This document shows positions 2,648-14,485 of a stretch of DNA of 29,786 nt, one piece after another. Location of the stretch: NCBI GenBank assembly GCA_038213575.1, contig JBBQSW010000001.1:1-29786 (forward strand), written 5' to 3'. The number at the start of each line of letters is the position of its first letter. Positions within the stretch are counted from its first letter, which is position 1. The translations under genes were made by a program, and so were the position numbers. The notes under the pieces were generated by a model. The model did no database searches. It saw only the letters and a program-made list of their open reading frames with translations, and had not been told where the DNA came from. The DNA is from Chitinophagales bacterium. GTDB lineage: Bacteria > Bacteroidota > Bacteroidia > Chitinophagales > Saprospiraceae.

Positions 2648-2776
2648 GAATGTTGAGGGGGCCGTGTTCAGAAATCTATGTCAACTGCCGAGAGTGTTCA
2701 GAAATCTGTGTCAACTGCTGGTTACACCCCCGTTGAGATTACGCAGCGGAGACCCTCAACATTCTCAACCCCCTCA
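2637..2776. repeat. MITE/REP-like element: 20-bp perfect terminal inverted repeats enclosing two 25-bp direct repeats
   Basis: GGGGTTGAGAATGTTGAGGG (2640-2659) pairs with CCCTCAACATTCTCAACCCC (2753-2772). GTGTTCAGAAATCT(A/G)TGTCAACTGC occurs at 2664-2688 and 2694-2718. Confidence 0.8.
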
Positions 2777-2800
2777 GAAACCTGACTTTTCCAAAAAAAT
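2772..2800. promoter_or_regulatory. Conserved box copy 1 (CCTCAGAAACCTGACTTTT..AAAAAAAT) upstream of the peptide gene
   Basis: 19/19 identical to 4691-4709 and contains the dyad TCAG-N4-CTGA. Confidence 0.6.
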
Positions 2801-2883
2801 GTCCAACGAGACTTTTGACTGTGTGAGTATCTTTAGTCCGTAGAAAATATTTGTTTCCAAATCATCTTTCAAATTTCTCTCGT

Positions 2884-3078
2884 ATGGCAAAGGAAAAACT
2901 CAAACTCAAAGACCTCCAGGTGCAGAGCATTGTCACTTCGCTAGAAGAAGGACAGATGCAGACCTTAAAAGGCGGCAAAGAAGTGGTGGGCCGCCGCCGC
3001 ATCTATTCTGTTCGCTGGACCATGATTGATACCCGTGTTCAATCGGACTTAGCGTTCGGATCCAACGGCGGAAATTAA
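2884..3078 (+). CDS. 64-aa peptide with pinensin-family-like leader and double-glycine site; Cys-free core
   Basis: MAKEKLKLKDLQVQSIVTSLEEGQMQTLKGG-KEVVGRRRIYSVRWTMIDTRVQSDLAFGSNGGN. The leader resembles the Bacteroidota LxLxxLxVxSFVT lanthipeptide leader and ends in GG. ATG 2884 was chosen over TTG 2851. Confidence 0.8.
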   Translation: MAKEKLKLKDLQVQSIVTSLEEGQMQTLKGGKEVVGRRRIYSVRWTMIDTRVQSDLAFGSNGGN

Positions 3079-4625
3079 GTCTCCGTAGATTCCGCCTCGC
3101 GCAGATATTTATCGCGTACCACTACTGCAAATGTTTGACCTCTTGCCTTGCCATCCAACCAAGCCAAGAGGTCAAATGTTTGCAACAAAGCCCTGGTTTC
3201 AGGCTCTTTTGCTTTGGTTTGCAAGTCGTTTTTCACCTTAGCAAAGACCTCGCGCTGGCCTCGCACATCCGGCAATTTTATCGCTTCAAAGATGCCGTGC
3301 ATAAACTGCCGTTCCAGTTCGTGGAGGCGGTTTTTTCTTTTCAAAAACCGGGCAGCCGTTCGGAGTTGAGAATCCAAAAGCAGGAAATTCCCCAGCTCAA
3401 AATGGAGGATGAGCGACAGGATGCGGGCAAGGCTCTGGAGGTCTTCGCGGCCCACAGTTCGGCGTTGGGCAAGCCAATGGTTCAGGTGGTCGAGTGCCCT
3501 GTTGTAGTCGCCACAGCCAATGCTGATGGGTACGAATTGCAGGTAGAAACTGCCTGTTTCGTATTCGTGCGGGTCAAAGCGTTCGGCTTCACGCAGACAG
3601 CGATCCATTTCACGTTGGGCTTTATCGAATTCGCCCGTGTAGGTGCAAAGTGCAAAAAACCCGCTGAAATATTGGCGGTGTATTTTTCGCCGGTCATCTT
3701 CTGTAATCGCCTGTAAACCATCAATTTTCCGCAGGCATTCGCGCACTTCCTCATATTTTCGGAGCAGGCCACATGCCAGAATTTGATTGCTCAGTGCGGC
3801 AATATATTCTGACAAATTTTCGCGTAAAAAATGTGGCTGTGACTCTTGCAGGGCGATGAGCGTCTTGCCGGTTTCGTAAAATTTTTCTTGCTCCAGCGCC
3901 GTGTGATAATAGAGGCTGAGGGTGCGGTAATATAGCACCCGGGCCGTGTGCGACACCGCCGCATTAGGGTCGGCGAACGCCTCTTGCTCTACCAACTGGC
4001 GAAGACGCGCCACACGATCGGGACCGCGTTGGACGGGATCTTTTTTGATCGTGGCGTAGGCCTGAAAAAATGCCCTCCGATAGTGTGAAGCATTGCGCAA
4101 TTGCTCCATTGCGCGCGCCTCTTCATCTTGCAATCGCTCGAGGTTTTTGTGGAGGAAATCTATGTCCATTCGGGTATAGGCAAGTTGCTTTTCCCATCGA
4201 ACTATTTCGATCTGGTGTGAAAAGCTCTCATGCTGTTGGGCGAGTTTGCGGGCCTTGCTCAGCAGTTCGCGGCAATCAGCGTAATGCCCCCGTTTGAAAA
4301 GTGCGGCAACACTCTGCAGCAGTTGGTTGAGGCGTTGTTGGGTGGAATGCAGTTCATCGTAATTCTGAAGACATTTCAGCACCAGTTCGTATAGATATGC
4401 CTTAAGCTCAGAGTATTTTTTACTGCCAAAGTCCTGACTTTTGTAAATTTTATTCCTCCATTTTTCCTCGTCAAACTGCTCGCCAGCAGCCAAAGCCTCA
4501 AATAGTTGGGTGTATTTGGTGTCTCCCCCTTGCGTCCCCCTTATGAAGATGCGGAAATAGCGTTTTTCGGCTGGCGAAAGCGAGCGAATGAGGCGGTGTA
4601 ATTTGTCGGAAGGTGTTTTTGACAT
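3075..4625 (-). CDS. Bacteroidota conserved hypothetical all-helical protein (N-terminal ~90-aa putative DNA-binding domain plus TPR-like repeats)
   Basis: 516-aa ORF. The N-terminus SDKLHRLIRSLSPAEKRYF matches a widespread Bacteroidota family I recognise. TPR-like helices include ALFKRGHYADCRELLSKARKLA, YTGEFDKAQREM and GDYNRALDHLN. No signal peptide or TM segment. Confidence 0.85.
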   Translation of the reverse strand: MSKTPSDKLHRLIRSLSPAEKRYFRIFIRGTQGGDTKYTQLFEALAAGEQFDEEKWRNKIYKSQDFGSKKYSELKAYLYELVLKCLQNYDELHSTQQRLNQLLQSVAALFKRGHYADCRELLSKARKLAQQHESFSHQIEIVRWEKQLAYTRMDIDFLHKNLERLQDEEARAMEQLRNASHYRRAFFQAYATIKKDPVQRGPDRVARLRQLVEQEAFADPNAAVSHTARVLYYRTLSLYYHTALEQEKFYETGKTLIALQESQPHFLRENLSEYIAALSNQILACGLLRKYEEVRECLRKIDGLQAITEDDRRKIHRQYFSGFFALCTYTGEFDKAQREMDRCLREAERFDPHEYETGSFYLQFVPISIGCGDYNRALDHLNHWLAQRRTVGREDLQSLARILSLILHFELGNFLLLDSQLRTAARFLKRKNRLHELERQFMHGIFEAIKLPDVRGQREVFAKVKNDLQTKAKEPETRALLQTFDLLAWLDGKARGQTFAVVVRDKYLREAESTET

Positions 4626-4647: not shown

Positions 4648-4679
4648 CAAAATTGTCAGATATTTATCATTTTACCAAA
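4648..4679 (-). promoter_or_regulatory. Putative Bacteroidota sigma70 promoter of the TPR-like gene (-33 TTTG / degenerate -7 CAATTTTG)
   Basis: Minus-strand TTTG (4679-4676), a 20-nt spacer, then CAATTTTG (4655-4648), which is one mismatch from TAnnTTTG. Confidence 0.4.
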
Positions 4680-4690
4680 ACTAAATATAG

Positions 4691-4718
4691 CCTCAGAAAC
4701 CTGACTTTTGAAAAAAAT
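4691..4718. promoter_or_regulatory. Conserved box copy 2 between the TPR-like gene and lytTR
   Basis: CCTCAGAAACCTGACTTTT is identical to 2772-2790 and is followed by the same A7T tract. Confidence 0.6.
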
Positions 4719-5002
4719 AGGGTTGCGGGAGGAAAAACGAGTGCGGACTTTTGTACCATTAGACGTTGGACGTTGGATTTGACCGGTTTCAAACTTATAA
4801 ACTCCAGTCTTTTCGAGCGAAAGTCCATAATCTAATGTCTAAGGAACGCGGCACCAATAACTTAGTCATTTTAGGTCAACCATTTTTTCATCAGACAACA
4901 CTATTTTTCTGCGAATAGCAGCGCTATTTAACGAAAAAGATAGGACGGATGACGGCAAAAGAATGGCATCAAATTGGAAAGTTATTTTGACACCGTTCCT
5001 AA

Positions 5003-5051
5003 TTCTACTTTGTCAAATGAGCCCCTTTGGGGCTGATGTGACAAAGTAGAA
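5003..5051. repeat. Hairpin TTCTACTTTGTCA...AGCCCC-TTT-GGGGCT...TGACAAAGTAGAA upstream of lytTR
   Basis: 13-bp perfect outer arms and a 6-bp inner stem. It resembles the CTTTGTCAAAG-type Bacteroidota palindromes. Confidence 0.65.
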
Positions 5052-5082
5052 CTAAGCGTCTTGAATCTAAAAATCTGCTGCC

Positions 5083-5538
5083 ATGCTAAAAGCCATCGCT
5101 ATCCGTCGCCAGTCTGAATCGCCAGAGCCCAATGCTTCAATTGCTCGCGCTTTGCCGCTAAAACCTTCGCTCAATATGGAGCCTGGGACAAAATTTGCTC
5201 CCGACGCGGAAAAAATCGCACTGCCTACGATGGAGGGGATATGTTTCGAAAAAGTGAAACATATCACTTATTTGGAAGCGAGTGGCAATTACACCGCCTT
5301 GCACTTCAAGGACAAACGGCAGGTCTTGGTGTGCAAAACCCTCCGGGAAGTGGAACAAATGCTTCCTGGTCGGGCATTCGTACGTATCCATCGCTCGCAC
5401 ACGATTCACCTCAAACACCTGAAAAAATATGTGCGAGGCAAAGGCGGCCATGTTTTGCTCCAAAACGGAGTGACGCTCACTGTATCCACCGGCCAAAAGG
5501 AATCGTTTTTGGGGCAAGTGAAGGCTTATTTTGGTTGA
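5083..5538 (+). CDS. Stand-alone LytTR DNA-binding domain protein (no receiver domain)
   Basis: KIALPTMEG...ITYLEASGNYT...LVCKTLREVE...FVRIHRSHTIHLKHLKKY...LQNG..LTVS is the LytTR signature. The N-terminal ~40 aa are low-complexity rather than a REC domain. Confidence 0.92.
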   Translation: MLKAIAIRRQSESPEPNASIARALPLKPSLNMEPGTKFAPDAEKIALPTMEGICFEKVKHITYLEASGNYTALHFKDKRQVLVCKTLREVEQMLPGRAFVRIHRSHTIHLKHLKKYVRGKGGHVLLQNGVTLTVSTGQKESFLGQVKAYFG

Positions 5539-5730: not shown

Positions 5731-5853
5731 AATAAAAAACACAGTAAGGGTTTGGTTTGGCACCGGGCGCAGCAACTTGCGTCCGGTGATTTTTTTTCTG
5801 AGGAAGCTCGAATTTTTCAGACCTTTCGCGGGCTAAAAGTCTCCAACCCTCCA

Positions 5854-8058
5854 TTGAGCAACGCCGACAATACCCTTCCACGCCGCTACCCCGGACTGCG
5901 CCCTTTTGAGCGCAGCCAAAGCGCTGTGTTCCACGGAAGGCAAGAAGATATTGCCAGGCTCAGCAACCTCGTGCTCCGAGAGCGTCTGGTGGTGCTGTTC
6001 GCCAAATCTGGGATGGGCAAAACATCCCTTTTGCAGGCCGGCTGCGCGCCCGAACTTGAGCGACAGGATTTTGTGCCTGTGTTTCTTCGCACGGAACGGA
6101 GCGACCGCCCCCTGCTCAGCGGTATCGGTGAAATGTTGGAGAAAAACACCCATGTGGGTAGCAAAAACAGCACCGGATTGCGCTCTGGTGCAGCACAGAC
6201 TTTGTGGGAAAAAATGAAACGGCTCGAGTTCGACCTCAGTGGCCTTCCCGCTACCCCCGTACTAGTGCTCGACCAATTTGAAGAAGCATTCACACTTGCT
6301 CATACAGAAGAAAGCCGCAACCACTTCTTCAACGAACTGGCTGATCTTGCCAACGAGACCATGCCAGAAGCATTGCGAACCTCGCTTCTGGAGGATTTTG
6401 AGTACGGAAAAATAGATGTAGAAACCATGCAGTGGTGGGAACAACAGCCCAACGTGCGCATCGTGTTGAGCATCCGTTCCGATTTTCTCCACATGATTGA
6501 CCGGGTGAGCAAAAGTATCCCGGGTATCCTCCGCAACCGTTACGAATTGCAGCCGCTGAACCGCGATAAGGCCCGCACGGCGATCGTGAAACCCGCTGAA
6601 CAATTGGGTGACTACGCAAGCCAGCCTTTTCTTTATGCGCCTGCAGCTCTGGAAGAAATGTTGGATTTCCTTTCAGGGCACGATGCAACCGACGAAAATG
6701 AGGGCAAAGCATTGACCAAGTCAGAGGAAATTGAAGCCGTCAACCTACAGATAATTTGTCAGGATGTGGAGGAACGCATCATTGATTTCCAAAAGCCCGC
6801 AGGCTTTGAGGTGGATGGTCAGTTCTATGAAGGCAAAGAGGGATTGCGCAACTCAATCCGCAATTTTTATCAAAACCAACTTCGTCTTTTCCCCAAGGCT
6901 TATGTGGAGCGCATTTTGCAAAAAACACAGCAAGGTGCTCCCATCTCGTCCTTAGACAAGGCTTTGACAGCCAAACCAATGGGCGATCTCCGTGATACAG
7001 CTCGGCGCCTCATCGAAGAAAGCCTCATCACACCTGGCAATCGCCGGAACAGTGTGGTGGACGACACGCTTATCAGTGAATTCCAGGTATCGCCTGATTT
7101 CCTAGACACACTGGTGGATAAGAGCCGCCTGCTGCGCAAGGAACCTCGGCTTGACGATTTCTACTACGAAATCAGTCACGACACGCTTTTGCCTGCCATC
7201 ATCGAATCGCGCAATACCCGTCGTGACAAAGAACAAGCCGACCGCCAAAAAGCGGAATACCAAGATCAATTGGCCGAAGAAGCCAAACGCCGTGAGGCAA
7301 TGGAAGCCGAGCTTACGCTTACCCGTAGGCAGCGCAAATTGGCCCGCACGGTGGCAATCACTTCGCTGCTTTCATTGCTGGTTTGTTTGGGCTTTGCTAT
7401 TTGGTTCATCAACGAGTATGTGGACAATGCCAGAAGCCAACTCACCCAAGCTGAATTTTATGTCCACAACGAATTGTACAATGCAGCCGATCACGCATAC
7501 AGCGAACTGATTGCCCACCCTCGCCGCACCTGGATACTCGAACATACCAGACCGCACCAAGATGTGTGCGCGGAATATGAGTTGGTCAAAAAGTTCCACA
7601 TATCCTACAGTACGATAGACAGCAATTTCGTCTTTGCCGATTCCTCGATGCTGGTCAACAACTATGCTTTTGCGCTCCAACATTACCGACTTGCGGAAGA
7701 TTCCTTGGCAGTCTATCGCTCGCTCAATGCTCAATTTTCGCACGATACTTTGAACAATAAGTGGCGGGTGCGTCAGCAACTCATTGATTCAAAGGCGGAT
7801 TTGATTGGAAAACGTATTTATAATGCAAACCAAGCCCTAGTTCGCGAATTCAAAATCAGTCAGCGCGAATACGAGTCATTCGTCGAGGCCAAAGTATGGG
7901 GCCAAGCCCTGCGCAATCTCCGGCGCATGAAACAACTTTTGCCCGCGCACCCTTCCGACGAAATTGATTTGAAAAACGCACTGAAAATCAATGAGCTCCC
8001 CAGCGAATACGTCAAAAAGGAACTTGTGAAATGCGAGGCAAAGCTGCTAGGGCTGTAA
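5854..8058 (+). CDS. Membrane-anchored nSTAND1-type (novel STAND NTPase 1) ATPase with C-terminal helical/TPR-like domain
   Basis: RYPGLRPF...FHGRQED, Walker A LFAKSGMGKTSLLQAG, Walker B LVLDQFEE, SIRSDF, L.PL....A..AI..P, and YEISHD. A coiled coil and a TM helix (VAITSLLSLLVCLGFAIWFI) follow. TTG 5854 is the likely start (the ORF track extends to 5752). Confidence 0.88.
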   Translation: MSNADNTLPRRYPGLRPFERSQSAVFHGRQEDIARLSNLVLRERLVVLFAKSGMGKTSLLQAGCAPELERQDFVPVFLRTERSDRPLLSGIGEMLEKNTHVGSKNSTGLRSGAAQTLWEKMKRLEFDLSGLPATPVLVLDQFEEAFTLAHTEESRNHFFNELADLANETMPEALRTSLLEDFEYGKIDVETMQWWEQQPNVRIVLSIRSDFLHMIDRVSKSIPGILRNRYELQPLNRDKARTAIVKPAEQLGDYASQPFLYAPAALEEMLDFLSGHDATDENEGKALTKSEEIEAVNLQIICQDVEERIIDFQKPAGFEVDGQFYEGKEGLRNSIRNFYQNQLRLFPKAYVERILQKTQQGAPISSLDKALTAKPMGDLRDTARRLIEESLITPGNRRNSVVDDTLISEFQVSPDFLDTLVDKSRLLRKEPRLDDFYYEISHDTLLPAIIESRNTRRDKEQADRQKAEYQDQLAEEAKRREAMEAELTLTRRQRKLARTVAITSLLSLLVCLGFAIWFINEYVDNARSQLTQAEFYVHNELYNAADHAYSELIAHPRRTWILEHTRPHQDVCAEYELVKKFHISYSTIDSNFVFADSSMLVNNYAFALQHYRLAEDSLAVYRSLNAQFSHDTLNNKWRVRQQLIDSKADLIGKRIYNANQALVREFKISQREYESFVEAKVWGQALRNLRRMKQLLPAHPSDEIDLKNALKINELPSEYVKKELVKCEAKLLGL

Positions 8059-12424: not shown

Positions 12425-12484
12425 TGACTATAAAATCATTTCCCCGCGAGAAATGAAATATTACAGTTGAGTTGGGTTTTCAGT

Positions 12485-13702
12485 ATGGCAAACAGAACTT
12501 CAAAATATAATGTGATTTCATTGTTTTCAGGAGCAATGGGTTTAGATATTGGACTTGAAAAGGCAGGCTTACACACAGCTGTTTGTGTTGAAATGAATAA
12601 ACTTGCTTGCGAAACGATTAGAACAAATACATCTATTCCTGTTATAGAAAATGACATTACAAAAGTTACGACTGAAGAAATCTTACAGACGGCTAATCTA
12701 AAGAAAGAAGAAGTTTTTATGGTAGTCGGGGGGCCACCTTGCCAAGCGTTCAGTACTGCAGGGAAGCGACTTTCATTGCAAGATTTTCGAGGGAATGTGA
12801 TTGTTAATTACCTCAGGGTGGTTGAAGAGATAAGCCCTCCTTATTTTATTCTTGAGAATGTGCGGGGTATTTTATCAACCCCACTTAATGCAGTTCCGAT
12901 AGAATATGAGAGCGAATACAATACCGTGGTTGAAATGCCTGGAAGTGTAGTTTATTTTTTATGGAACGAGTTTCAGAAATTGGGCTACGATATCAGTTTC
13001 GGGTTGTTCAATAGCGCAAATTATGGGGTACCACAGATTAGGGAACGGGTTATTATTTTTGGAAGTAAGAATGGAAGAATCCCATTGCCGAACCCAACAC
13101 ACAGCGAGACAGGGTTTGAAACTGGCATGAAGTGGGTCACTATCGCGGAGGCATTTGAAAACCTTGGAAAGCAAGAACAGTATCTTGAAATTCCACAGCG
13201 AATAAAAAAATTTCTTGTTCATATTAAGGAAGGTGAAAACTGGACTGACTTACCTGCTAATGTAAAAGCAGAGGCAATGGGAAAATCCATAGATTTGAGT
13301 GGCGGAAGAACAGGATTTTACCGCAGATTATCCTTCAACAGACCATCCCCAACTTTGCTAACAAGTCCGATAATGAACGCAACCTTATTGGCACATCCTA
13401 CAGAGATGCGCTCCCTATCTGTTCAAGAGTATGCAAGGATTCAACAATTTCCCGACAGTTGGAAACTACAAGGAAAACCTACAGACCTATTTAAACAAAT
13501 CGGCAACGCAGTCCCAACTGGGCTAGGTTATATCGCTGGAAAGACAATTCTAGATTTTCACCATGGCGACTTTGACCCCCAAAGAGAAAAACGGAATAGA
13601 GTTCCATATTCGAGGTATTTAGGTTGTTCGGACTTTCAATTTATTCCGACTTTCAAAAAAAATTTACAAAAGAGTAGTCAAAAACAACTTATCTTTTCAT
13701 GA
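12485..13702 (+). CDS. DNA (cytosine-5) methyltransferase, type II R-M
   Basis: Motifs I (LFSGAMGLDIG), IV (GGPPCQAFS), VI (ENV), VIII (QIRER), IX (RSLSVQEYARIQQFP) and X (QIGNAVP). Confidence 0.97.
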   Translation: MANRTSKYNVISLFSGAMGLDIGLEKAGLHTAVCVEMNKLACETIRTNTSIPVIENDITKVTTEEILQTANLKKEEVFMVVGGPPCQAFSTAGKRLSLQDFRGNVIVNYLRVVEEISPPYFILENVRGILSTPLNAVPIEYESEYNTVVEMPGSVVYFLWNEFQKLGYDISFGLFNSANYGVPQIRERVIIFGSKNGRIPLPNPTHSETGFETGMKWVTIAEAFENLGKQEQYLEIPQRIKKFLVHIKEGENWTDLPANVKAEAMGKSIDLSGGRTGFYRRLSFNRPSPTLLTSPIMNATLLAHPTEMRSLSVQEYARIQQFPDSWKLQGKPTDLFKQIGNAVPTGLGYIAGKTILDFHHGDFDPQREKRNRVPYSRYLGCSDFQFIPTFKKNLQKSSQKQLIFS

Positions 13703-13750
13703 GAACCCCACTTGGCACCTATAAAATATATTTATTTAACCTATAGAACT

Positions 13751-14485
13751 ATGAACCAGATAGATTTAAAAAGTGTACAGCAATATGTTGAGGCTAATAT
13801 CAGTTCATTTCATGATAAACGAATTGCGAGTCTCCAAGGTCTCAAGCTAAAAACTGTACTCCAAAAGAAAAATCCCTACCTATTTCGTGCAAAATATTTA
13901 TTGACAGCCGAACAAATCGTTCGCAGTCTGACAGACGCTTTTATTTCTTCAAATGAAGAAACGATATTTGGTGACTGGTTAGAAGGTTTGGCTACATTTA
14001 TCAACAACAAAGTTTTTGGAGGTCGTAAGTCTGGAATAAATGGTGTTGACTTAGAATTTGACAAAGACGGGATTCGATATATTGTAAATATCAAATCTGG
14101 CCCTAATTGGGGTAATGCGAGTCAGATTAAAAAAATGAGTACTGATTTCAAAGCTGCTGGTAAAACTTTGAGAACTAGTGGTTCTGGACTGCAAGTTATT
14201 GCTGTAAATGGGTGTTGCTATGGCCGCAATAAAAACCCTGACAAAGGTGATTGTTTTAAATATTGCGGCCAGCAATTTTGGGAATTTATATCAGGTGATA
14301 CAAATTTATTTACGGAAATCATTGAACCATTAGGCTATAAATCCAAAGAAAAAAATGATTCATTTTCAGAGGCCTACGCAAAGATGATAAACTTATTTAC
14401 ATTAGAGTTTGCCACTGACTTTTGCACCACCGATGGTTCTATCGACTGGTCAAAATTGGTTCGATTTAACTCTGAAAAAAAATAA
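13751..14485 (+). CDS. Type II restriction endonuclease, PmeII/EcoO109I-like family
   Basis: KNPYLF...SSNEETIFGDWLE...GVDLEF...IKSGPNWGN...GQQFWEFISG...DGSIDWSKLV, directly downstream of the MTase. Confidence 0.88.
   Translation: MNQIDLKSVQQYVEANISSFHDKRIASLQGLKLKTVLQKKNPYLFRAKYLLTAEQIVRSLTDAFISSNEETIFGDWLEGLATFINNKVFGGRKSGINGVDLEFDKDGIRYIVNIKSGPNWGNASQIKKMSTDFKAAGKTLRTSGSGLQVIAVNGCCYGRNKNPDKGDCFKYCGQQFWEFISGDTNLFTEIIEPLGYKSKEKNDSFSEAYAKMINLFTLEFATDFCTTDGSIDWSKLVRFNSEKK

Follow-up and report, generated by a model that had tools for sequence, protein, structure and literature searches.

The window analyzed here is the stretch formed by the first 29,786 nucleotides (forward strand) of contig JBBQSW010000001.1, from the Chitinophagales bacterium assembly GCA_038213575.1 (Bacteroidota, family Saprospiraceae). 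Near its beginning a small gene for a peptide precursor of 64 aa runs convergently into the gene of a protein of 516 aa. We read this locus as a single copy of a regulatory module that is self-contained and conserved in the Saprospiraceae; its two-gene core consists of the peptide and of the 516-aa tetratricopeptide repeat (TPR) protein, joined in most lineages by a DNA-binding protein of the LytTR type. The module looks like an undescribed peptide-linked regulatory circuit of the Bacteroidota, in which, we infer, the TPR protein binds the peptide. An initial annotation, made from the sequence alone, had proposed the two convergent genes as a peptide-receptor signalling pair; as a whole system this pair was incomplete, because the LytTR gene (5083-5538) and a promoter box shared within the module had been missed.

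The convergent pair and its spread

The peptide gene occupies positions 2884 to 3078 of the forward strand and the 516-aa gene positions 3075 to 4625 of the reverse strand. The two stop codons share the tetranucleotide TTAA at 3075-3078, and thus the two open reading frames (ORFs) are separated by zero intergenic DNA; this arrangement, with its coordinates, was confirmed as originally described. The 4-nt overlap is a local trait, as the spacing between peptide and regulator genes varies across loci from -40 to +193 bp.

How widespread is the pair? The window's genome is a 65%-complete assembly in 470 contigs, with a single leader of the pinensin type (the family to which the peptide's leader belongs, see below) and a single protein of the 516-aa type. 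An orthologue of the latter occurs in about 31 of 36 species of the same genus, with 51-89% identity, and a homologous peptide gene is convergent with it in all 28 same-genus loci that extend beyond the regulator 3' end, at spacings of -40 to +152 bp. The reverse search gave the same picture: the peptide motif Y[RST][TVS]RWTx[VI]DT alone, run on one genome per GTDB species, returned 63 loci, and in each of the 63 an orthologue of the 516-aa protein (46-94% identity) is convergent within 2-193 bp. All of these loci are metagenome-assembled, and they are labelled Saprospiraceae, Lewinellaceae, Saprospirales, Chitinophagales or Bacteroidetes, bar one, which sits on a 2.6-kb contig labelled Thermoanaerobaculia. 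Losses are shared as well: five same-genus genomes that lack the regulator, 89-99% complete, also lack the peptide and any LytTR protein scoring like that of the module.

Outside the genus, 200 genomes from 168 genera of the family were sampled, and the peptide profile found matches, mostly single ones, in 36 genomes of 29 genera. In 30 of 35 loci from about 29 further genera, the regulator is convergent with a peptide whose leader is related and whose core differs, and 23 of the 30 include the LytTR gene. The 30 regulators score 494-683 bits on the hidden Markov model of the family, as opposed to 138-467 bits for paralogues devoid of a peptide. The cores from the other genera diverge strongly in length and sequence, and what is kept is the motif [WFV][TG]xx[DEK]x[RQ], with variants such as WTxIDTR, WTxxKTQ, WTISEIR and WGEIDIR. 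Even metagenome homologues at 30-38% identity have convergent double-glycine (GG) peptides with other cores, three of them together with LytTR; one pair at this distance shows the same 4-nt overlap and has no LytTR. In total, the module is found in about 90 Saprospiraceae species, LytTR usually included; its carriers number among them several genomes that are complete or nearly so (G113, G223, G025 and G030). The pairing is not due to chance, and the module is inherited and lost as a unit.

The initial annotation had made its proposal for the entire protein family and had staked it on synteny of the peptide gene among homologues. This synteny is very strong, and it belongs to one subfamily only. 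A convergent GG peptide accompanies none of 60 paralogues from 20 genomes, the promoter box is upstream of none of 64 paralogues, and no pinensin-type leader occurs in five genomes from other families of the order, each with 5-24 paralogues; a pairing that spans the whole family was rejected on these grounds. A distant homologue without a peptide (P0034) adjoins a GH65 gene, in the style of the regulator RusR discussed below.

Two side observations concern gene copies. The regulator is tandemly duplicated in some genomes (L063, L211, L220 and G016:C109), and at L063 the duplicated unit comprises both the regulator and the LytTR gene. At another locus (L222, G087:C584:26354-33452) three precursors with similar leaders and long, Cys/Asp-rich cores are arranged in tandem with no TPR regulator near; they are probably a different use of the leader family, of the type found in peptides that ribosomes make and that are modified after translation (RiPPs).

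As for the peptide itself, the 64-aa product reads MAKEKLKLKDLQVQSIVTSLEEGQMQTLKGG, followed by the 33-aa core; the GG leader (residues 1-31) is encoded by 2884-2976, and the core, which is cationic and free of Cys, by 2977-3075. The leader reaches 39.6 bits against NCBIfam NF038180, the leader family of the pinensin lanthipeptides, whose cut-off is 24. Double-glycine leaders are typically hydrophobic at positions -4, -7, -12 and -15, which here are L28, M25, L20 and V17; the alignment of the peptides (A1) conserves them as V/L/I, M/L, L and V, respectively. Invariant in the same alignment are K29, G30 and G31 of the leader and R44, W45, T46, D49 and R51 of the core, and the leader is roughly as conserved as the core. 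The GG ends at residue 31 in 63 of 63 orthologous peptides, and pairwise differences between the peptide genes of the 63 loci amount to 0.37, 0.27 and 0.59 at the three codon positions. These coding-like differences, the fixed position of the GG and the conservation across loci establish the ORF as a real, constrained gene. Cysteine appears in 1 of the 63 orthologous cores, and the conserved stretch of the core (residues 32-52) combines cationic with aromatic character, at a net charge of +5 over 21 residues.

The partner is predicted to be a cytoplasmic, all-helical protein and is a candidate regulator or receptor. It would begin with a conserved N-terminal domain of four helices (residues 1-65), continue with long helices and end in a TPR superhelix that spans residues ~165-514. 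The AlphaFold2 model, calculated with 121 homologues, has a mean predicted local distance difference test score (pLDDT) of 94.7 and a predicted TM-score of 0.91; it is wholly helical, with four short helices between residues 8 and 61. Pfam gives only TPR matches below threshold, and the profile of the family matches the TPR of kinesin light chain with an E value of 6e-10. Judged by profile and model, the 516-aa protein is a true TPR protein.

The closest structural matches of the superhelix came from an exhaustive comparison of residues ~165-514 with 48,161 chains by VIA-align: RapI (Z 18.7), the phi105 Rap protein with its peptide (Z 18.3) and the pLS20 Rap protein (Z 17.7), with LGN (Z 16.9), domain III of MalT (Z 16.5), NprR-NprX (Z 16.4) and PlcR-PapR (Z 13.6) as further matches. 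Such values exceed the usual level of helical repeats, yet they are not clear of unrelated TPR proteins. Since LGN, an unrelated TPR protein, scores nearly as high, the likeness to Rap and NprR denotes a fold class and is no proof of kinship. Foldseek with the whole model against the PDB gave generic TPR matches only (E >=1e-3). Among language-model neighbours, the Rap clusters are the nearest named ones outside the family (0.78), which serves as a lead only. Profile searches in Pfam, NCBIfam and PDB found no match to the RRNPP family of peptide receptors.

Within the family, conservation peaks in the N-terminal domain (S..LF.LIKSLS.SEKRYFK). Here the initial annotation, which had expected a winged helix-turn-helix (HTH) followed by TPR, stood for the TPR part, with Rap and NprR as best matches, and was left with weak, noise-level matches for the HTH. 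Pfam detects no HTH, and Foldseek with the model of residues 1-95 returned nothing. Many DNA-binding domains, namely sigma region 4 and those of the LuxR, OmpR and Fur types, match the N-terminal model at Z 4.3-5.4, a range that is within noise.

The family to which the protein belongs comprises 6,264 clusters (50% identity, E <=1e-3), nearly all of 500-520 aa. NCBIfam NF058569, the BT2802 family, aligns with residues 1-500 over positions 1-499 of 502, with an E value of 1e-35 and 123.7 bits. Given that the cut-off is 550 bits, the protein represents a distant subfamily of RusR and is not equivalent to it. In Bacteroides thetaiotaomicron, RusR (BT2802) positively regulates the locus for ribose utilisation. 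It was described as having predicted DNA-binding motifs and no homology to known regulators of polysaccharide utilization loci (bioRxiv 10.1101/574913). Without rusR, the bacterium fails to grow on ribose and attains only ~10% of rus induction (bioRxiv 10.1101/574913; see also PMC12596196), and the cue is ribose-derived (bioRxiv 10.1101/574913). The two proteins are alike in length, in their all-helical build and in the N-terminal motif LSxxEKRYF; they differ in their surroundings, as the 516-aa gene adjoins no SusC/SusD, ribokinase or sugar genes and has as neighbours the peptide, LytTR, pirin and nSTAND1 NTPase genes. The suggestion that this protein family may sense peptides keeps its force for the subfamily that is paired with a peptide and loses it for the family at large, given the 60 paralogues without a peptide and the response of RusR to ribose.

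The LytTR gene and the shared promoter box

The third member of the module was found by clustering the neighbours of 64 loci. In the window it is a gene for a stand-alone LytTR DNA-binding protein of 151 aa (5083-5538, forward strand), in which PF04397 matches residues 53-142 with 56.8 bits. The alignment of these proteins (A5) shows a variable N-terminus of ~45 aa and the LytTR domain, with no receiver domain. The gene is divergent from the regulator in 60 of 60 loci with DNA on that side, while three loci are cut there. In genomes without an adjacent LytTR gene, the best LytTR protein elsewhere reaches at most 111 bits, as against 153-237 bits for the module copies.

The noncoding DNA carries a conserved box (TCAGAAACCTGACTTTT...), located ~50 nt ahead of a -7-like element in both the peptide and the LytTR promoters. 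Box 1 (CCTCAGAAACCTGACTTTTCCAAAAAA, 2772-2798, forward strand) lies ~107 nt ahead of the peptide ATG, and box 2 (CCTCAGAAACCTGACTTTTGAAAAAAA, 4691-4717, forward strand) lies 71 nt from the regulator ATG and points at LytTR; the two are on the same strand and identical at 25 of 27 positions. Delimited as 28 bp, the box is placed at 2774-2803 and 4693-4722 and includes the segment GAAACCTGAC. The core of the box, GAAACCTGA, is found 95-125 nt ahead of the peptide ATG in the same orientation in ~59 of 62 loci. In ~52 of 60 loci it is also present in the spacer between regulator and LytTR, where its distance to the regulator ATG is mostly 55-117 nt, a few outlying loci having 36 or 163-246 nt. Its orientation is constant, toward the peptide and LytTR genes, and different genera retain it in the form TYAGAAACCTGAC. 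Conservation is much stronger in the left half; the right half is displaced by 2-3 nt between the two promoters.

Putative promoter elements accompany the boxes. For the peptide gene, a candidate -7 element (TATCTTTA, 2828-2835, forward strand) begins 51 nt past the start of the box core, with TA.cTTT conserved over 60 loci. For LytTR, the corresponding element (GACTTTTG, 4746-4753, forward strand) begins 50 nt past it, with actTTtg conserved. The Bacteroidota -7 consensus is TAnnTTTG, and several loci have it in perfect form at the LytTR position. No -33 TTTG is present at the usual spacing in these box-bearing promoters. The regulator gene, in turn, has a putative promoter at 4648-4680 on the reverse strand, with a -33 TTTG (complement of 4676-4679), a 20-nt spacer and the -7-like element CAATTTTG (complement of 4648-4655); the region holds the string CaAAA.TGtc...CCAAA, conserved in 52 aligned loci. 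With this geometry the box would be an activator-type site, ~40-65 nt upstream of the presumed starts, that serves the peptide promoter and the divergent promoters of regulator and LytTR.

Which protein would read the box? By eye, no 9-12-9 direct repeats of the LytTR type are evident in it. The box also occurs in loci that have no LytTR neighbour, and this tilts the odds, short of settling them, toward the 516-aa protein over LytTR.

The box may reach beyond the module. Its exact 12-mer has six copies in the window's genome, compared to none for a control pattern, and across six genomes several of the additional sites show an extended consensus and stand 70-130 nt ahead of genes for proteins with signal peptides (G000:C19:3769-3780 and G000:C461:987-998, both on the reverse strand, and at L099, L102, L105, L109, L110, L115, L119 and L124). 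The secreted proteins so preceded comprise one with a GWxTD domain, others that resemble PQQ_2 beta-propellers and a family to which Pfam gives no match. As orthologous genes keep the site across genomes, these proteins form a candidate regulon.

The spacer between regulator and LytTR measures 458 nt in the window, as opposed to roughly 100-350 nt in most other loci. It contains a hairpin with 26-nt arms (5000-5054, z -6.7), 29 nt ahead of the LytTR ATG; an attenuator, a terminator and an inserted element are all conceivable readings of this hairpin.

Possible workings of the module

How would such a module work? The precursor would be cut after Gly31 and exported by a peptidase-C39 ATP-binding cassette transporter (PCAT; PF03412). 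At least one PCAT is encoded in every genome examined, unlinked to the module. The one of the window's genome is intact, with the catalytic motifs SDCGAACL, QFDSSDCGAACL and HWKQDHFVVV, and each near-complete genome of the genus encodes a single pinensin-type leader. The TPR protein would then sense the re-imported mature peptide, as RRNPP receptors do, or perhaps a pool of precursor that has not been exported. A regulator, with the TPR protein somewhat likelier than LytTR in this role, would bind the box and turn on the genes of the peptide, of LytTR and of a few secreted proteins, and this would close a positive feedback loop. To the central step, in which the peptide is the cognate signal of the TPR protein by either route, we assign an even chance. 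The fuller proposal is a tentative one that we hold possible and, taken in all its parts, somewhat doubtful: it would be the first case of peptide-based cell-cell signalling in the Bacteroidota, with a GG peptide exported by a PCAT, a Rap/NprR-like receptor of the RusR family, autoinduction with LytTR, a switch for secreted proteins and co-diversification of peptide and receptor between genera.

Several observations weigh against this signalling scheme. The PCAT is not dedicated to the module, since it is present in genomes devoid of the latter, and its phyletic pattern, being the same with and without the module, is uninformative. An exported peptide of 33-45 aa needs an import route, and neither an Opp-like nor any other transporter is linked to the module. 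Within the genus the core is highly conserved (GRRxTYRxRWTxVDTR), unlike the rapid divergence of pherotypes that many quorum-sensing peptides display. The model of residues 1-95 (pLDDT 79.7) has only weak fold matches (Z <=6.4). On the presumed binding, the three-chain prediction of regulator, LytTR and precursor, with a score of 0.02, weighs neither way. Lastly, the covariation between core and TPR pocket that the initial annotation had proposed as a check comes down to one candidate column, R312, with Arg where the peptides are of the Asp type and Glu where they are of the Lys type. This charge swap corresponds to just one or two independent contrasts on the tree, has exceptions and is confounded by phylogeny, so that it was not used as evidence.

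Could the peptide instead be the product that is regulated? It would then be an unmodified class II-type bacteriocin, or another extracellular effector, whose production the TPR protein and LytTR control in response to a different cue, the peptide itself going unsensed. GG leaders in the Bacteroidota are typical of bacteriocins and RiPPs (NF038180, TIGR04149), the conserved part of the core has the cationic and aromatic character already described, regulators often adjoin bacteriocin genes, and members of the RusR family are able to respond to small metabolites. We nevertheless judge this unlikely: over ~125 loci conservation extends to no immunity gene, accessory gene or dedicated exporter, and the gene is single-copy, vertically inherited and lost together with its two partners, whereas bacteriocin loci are usually patchy and variable. 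Moreover, one and the same box stands at the peptide promoter, at the promoters of the regulators themselves and ahead of the secreted-protein genes, which fits an autoregulated circuit. A different possibility is that the 64-aa product never leaves the cell and works in the cytoplasm, be it by restraining the TPR protein or LytTR as an anti-activator or by serving one of them as co-factor, its leader-like N-terminus being a binding helix. A cytoplasmic receptor would then have no need for import, and the tight convergent pair that persists even without LytTR, the lack of a linked transporter and a leader about as conserved as the core are all in keeping with it. What makes us regard it as rather improbable is that the leader agrees with all the sequence criteria of PCAT substrates (fixed GG, hydrophobic -4/-7/-12/-15 positions, a score above the NF038180 cut-off) and that an intact PCAT exists in every genome examined.

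There is also the option that the precursor is that of a RiPP with unlinked tailoring enzymes, and that the 516-aa protein is a scaffold, a chaperone or a leader-binding protein and not a regulator. The leader family is indeed named for lanthipeptides, and the conserved Thr, Asp and Trp of the core are possible sites of modification. Even so, this is very improbable. The 29.8-kb window holds no gene for a lanthipeptide enzyme (LanB/LanC/LanM), a radical SAM or ATP-grasp enzyme or a peptidase-ABC exporter, and neither LanB/LanC/LanM nor radical SAM or ATP-grasp enzymes are among the conserved neighbours of the module (64 loci). Cys is confined to a single one of the 63 cores, the acidic position of the core becomes Lys in other genera, the genetic evidence in the RusR family is for a role as regulator, and the shared box points to transcriptional control. 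For the same reasons (no enzymes, no Cys, an acidic position that turns to Lys), a specific reading as graspetide or lanthipeptide found no support. Compared to the pinensin lanthipeptides, the module shares a leader above the NF038180 cut-off, and it differs in a Cys-free core that is conserved within the genus and in having no lanthipeptide enzymes near; the peptide is not a lanthipeptide.

For the proposal that the peptide is a signal sensed by the TPR protein, the natural reference is the RRNPP group of the Bacillota (Rap-Phr, NprR-NprX, PlcR-PapR, PrgX, Rgg-SHP and ComR-XIP). In both cases the gene of a cytoplasmic TPR-type protein stands beside that of a small peptide, and some shp/rgg pairs are, according to the initial annotation, convergent too. 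Residues ~165-514 of the 516-aa protein have Rap and NprR as closest structures, and the sharing of the peptide promoter box with the promoter region of the regulators would fit autoregulation. The differences are equally clear: the module has no detectable sequence homology to these systems, searches found no XRE-type HTH or RapH_N domain in it, and its peptide bears a GG leader for a peptidase-ABC exporter instead of a Sec or PptAB-type signal. The core left after the GG cut has 33-45 aa and not 5-10, no Opp importer is linked, LytTR is an extra partner, and the phylum is the Bacteroidota. By analogy, the module may work like RRNPP systems, and it is not a member of the group.

Other circuits provide a second term of comparison. 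ComC and BlpC are GG-leader peptides, and the ComCDE, BlpRH, Pln and Agr-type systems of the Bacillota resemble the module in their combination of such a peptide with a LytTR protein and in a promoter box common to peptide and regulator genes, which suggests autoinduction. The module LytTR has no receiver domain, as is the case for HdrR and BrsR of the HdrRM and BrsRM systems, in which a membrane inhibitor is co-transcribed. In contrast to all of these, the module has no histidine kinase, receiver domain or membrane inhibitor, and a divergent soluble TPR protein takes their place. In addition, the box differs from the sites of LytTR circuits in being no obvious 9-12-9 direct repeat and in occurring also where no orthologous LytTR was found.

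Surroundings and significance

Around the module, the neighbours depend on the lineage: in the sub-clade of the window they are a pirin gene, a BNR protein and an nSTAND1 NTPase, and elsewhere recX-like and cinA-like genes. The nSTAND1 NTPase (PF20703, E 7e-36; 5752-8058) is downstream of LytTR on the same strand and occurs in 15 of 64 loci; as these all belong to the window's sub-clade, it is placed outside the conserved module. PADLOC gave this NTPase a marginal mad8 match only and returned no match for the peptide, regulator and LytTR genes, so that a reading of the locus as a defence system is unsupported.

On the absence of a terminator between the two convergent ORFs the initial annotation holds, though the last part of the 516-aa gene, close to its 3' end, contains a hairpin with a 24-bp stem. 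This inverted repeat (3126-3184, 25-nt arms, minimum free energy z -5.6) starts 48 nt beyond the peptide stop. Over the 140 nt that follow the peptide stop, 26 of 63 loci show folding more than 10 kcal/mol better than that of control windows inside the regulator gene. The hairpin of the window could serve the convergent transcripts as a terminator or mark their RNA ends.

An inverted repeat with perfect 20-nt arms (GGGGTTGAGAATGTTGAGGG) spans 2640-2772; the arms are at 2640-2659 and 2753-2772, and between them lie two direct repeats of 25 nt (2664-2688 and 2694-2718). Copies of the arm are dispersed, 20 of them (<=2 mismatches) in the 65%-complete genome and none for a control. From its sequence it looks like an element of the repetitive extragenic palindrome (REP) or miniature inverted-repeat transposable element (MITE) kind that has landed in the DNA separating the pirin gene from the promoter box of the peptide. 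Elsewhere the window holds housekeeping genes, glycosyltransferases and a type II restriction-modification pair (12467-14485), made of a C5 cytosine methylase (12467-13702) and an EcoO109I-type endonuclease (13712-14485). Matches to the window in DNA metagenomes come from freshwater, sediment and microbial mat.

No description of such a module was found in the searchable literature, and the same applies to any peptide-based signalling system for the Bacteroidota. The only signalling pathway of the phylum found there is that of the N-acyl-cyclolysines, which are non-peptidic, as cited in PMC13419125.

The Bacillota, together with their phages and plasmids, are known to have peptide pheromone circuits in which the receptor is a cytoplasmic TPR protein. 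If the peptide is the ligand, the module would be a case of convergent evolution, in which an RRNPP-like logic arose from a different family of receptors. It would also provide the first non-sugar class of ligand for the RusR family, whose more than 6,000 clusters are nearly all unannotated. The module is small, with a defined 28-bp box and a defined peptide, and the idea is therefore directly testable. Should it prove right, it would offer a handle on gene regulation in the Saprospiraceae, whose assemblies come from freshwater, sediment and wastewater.

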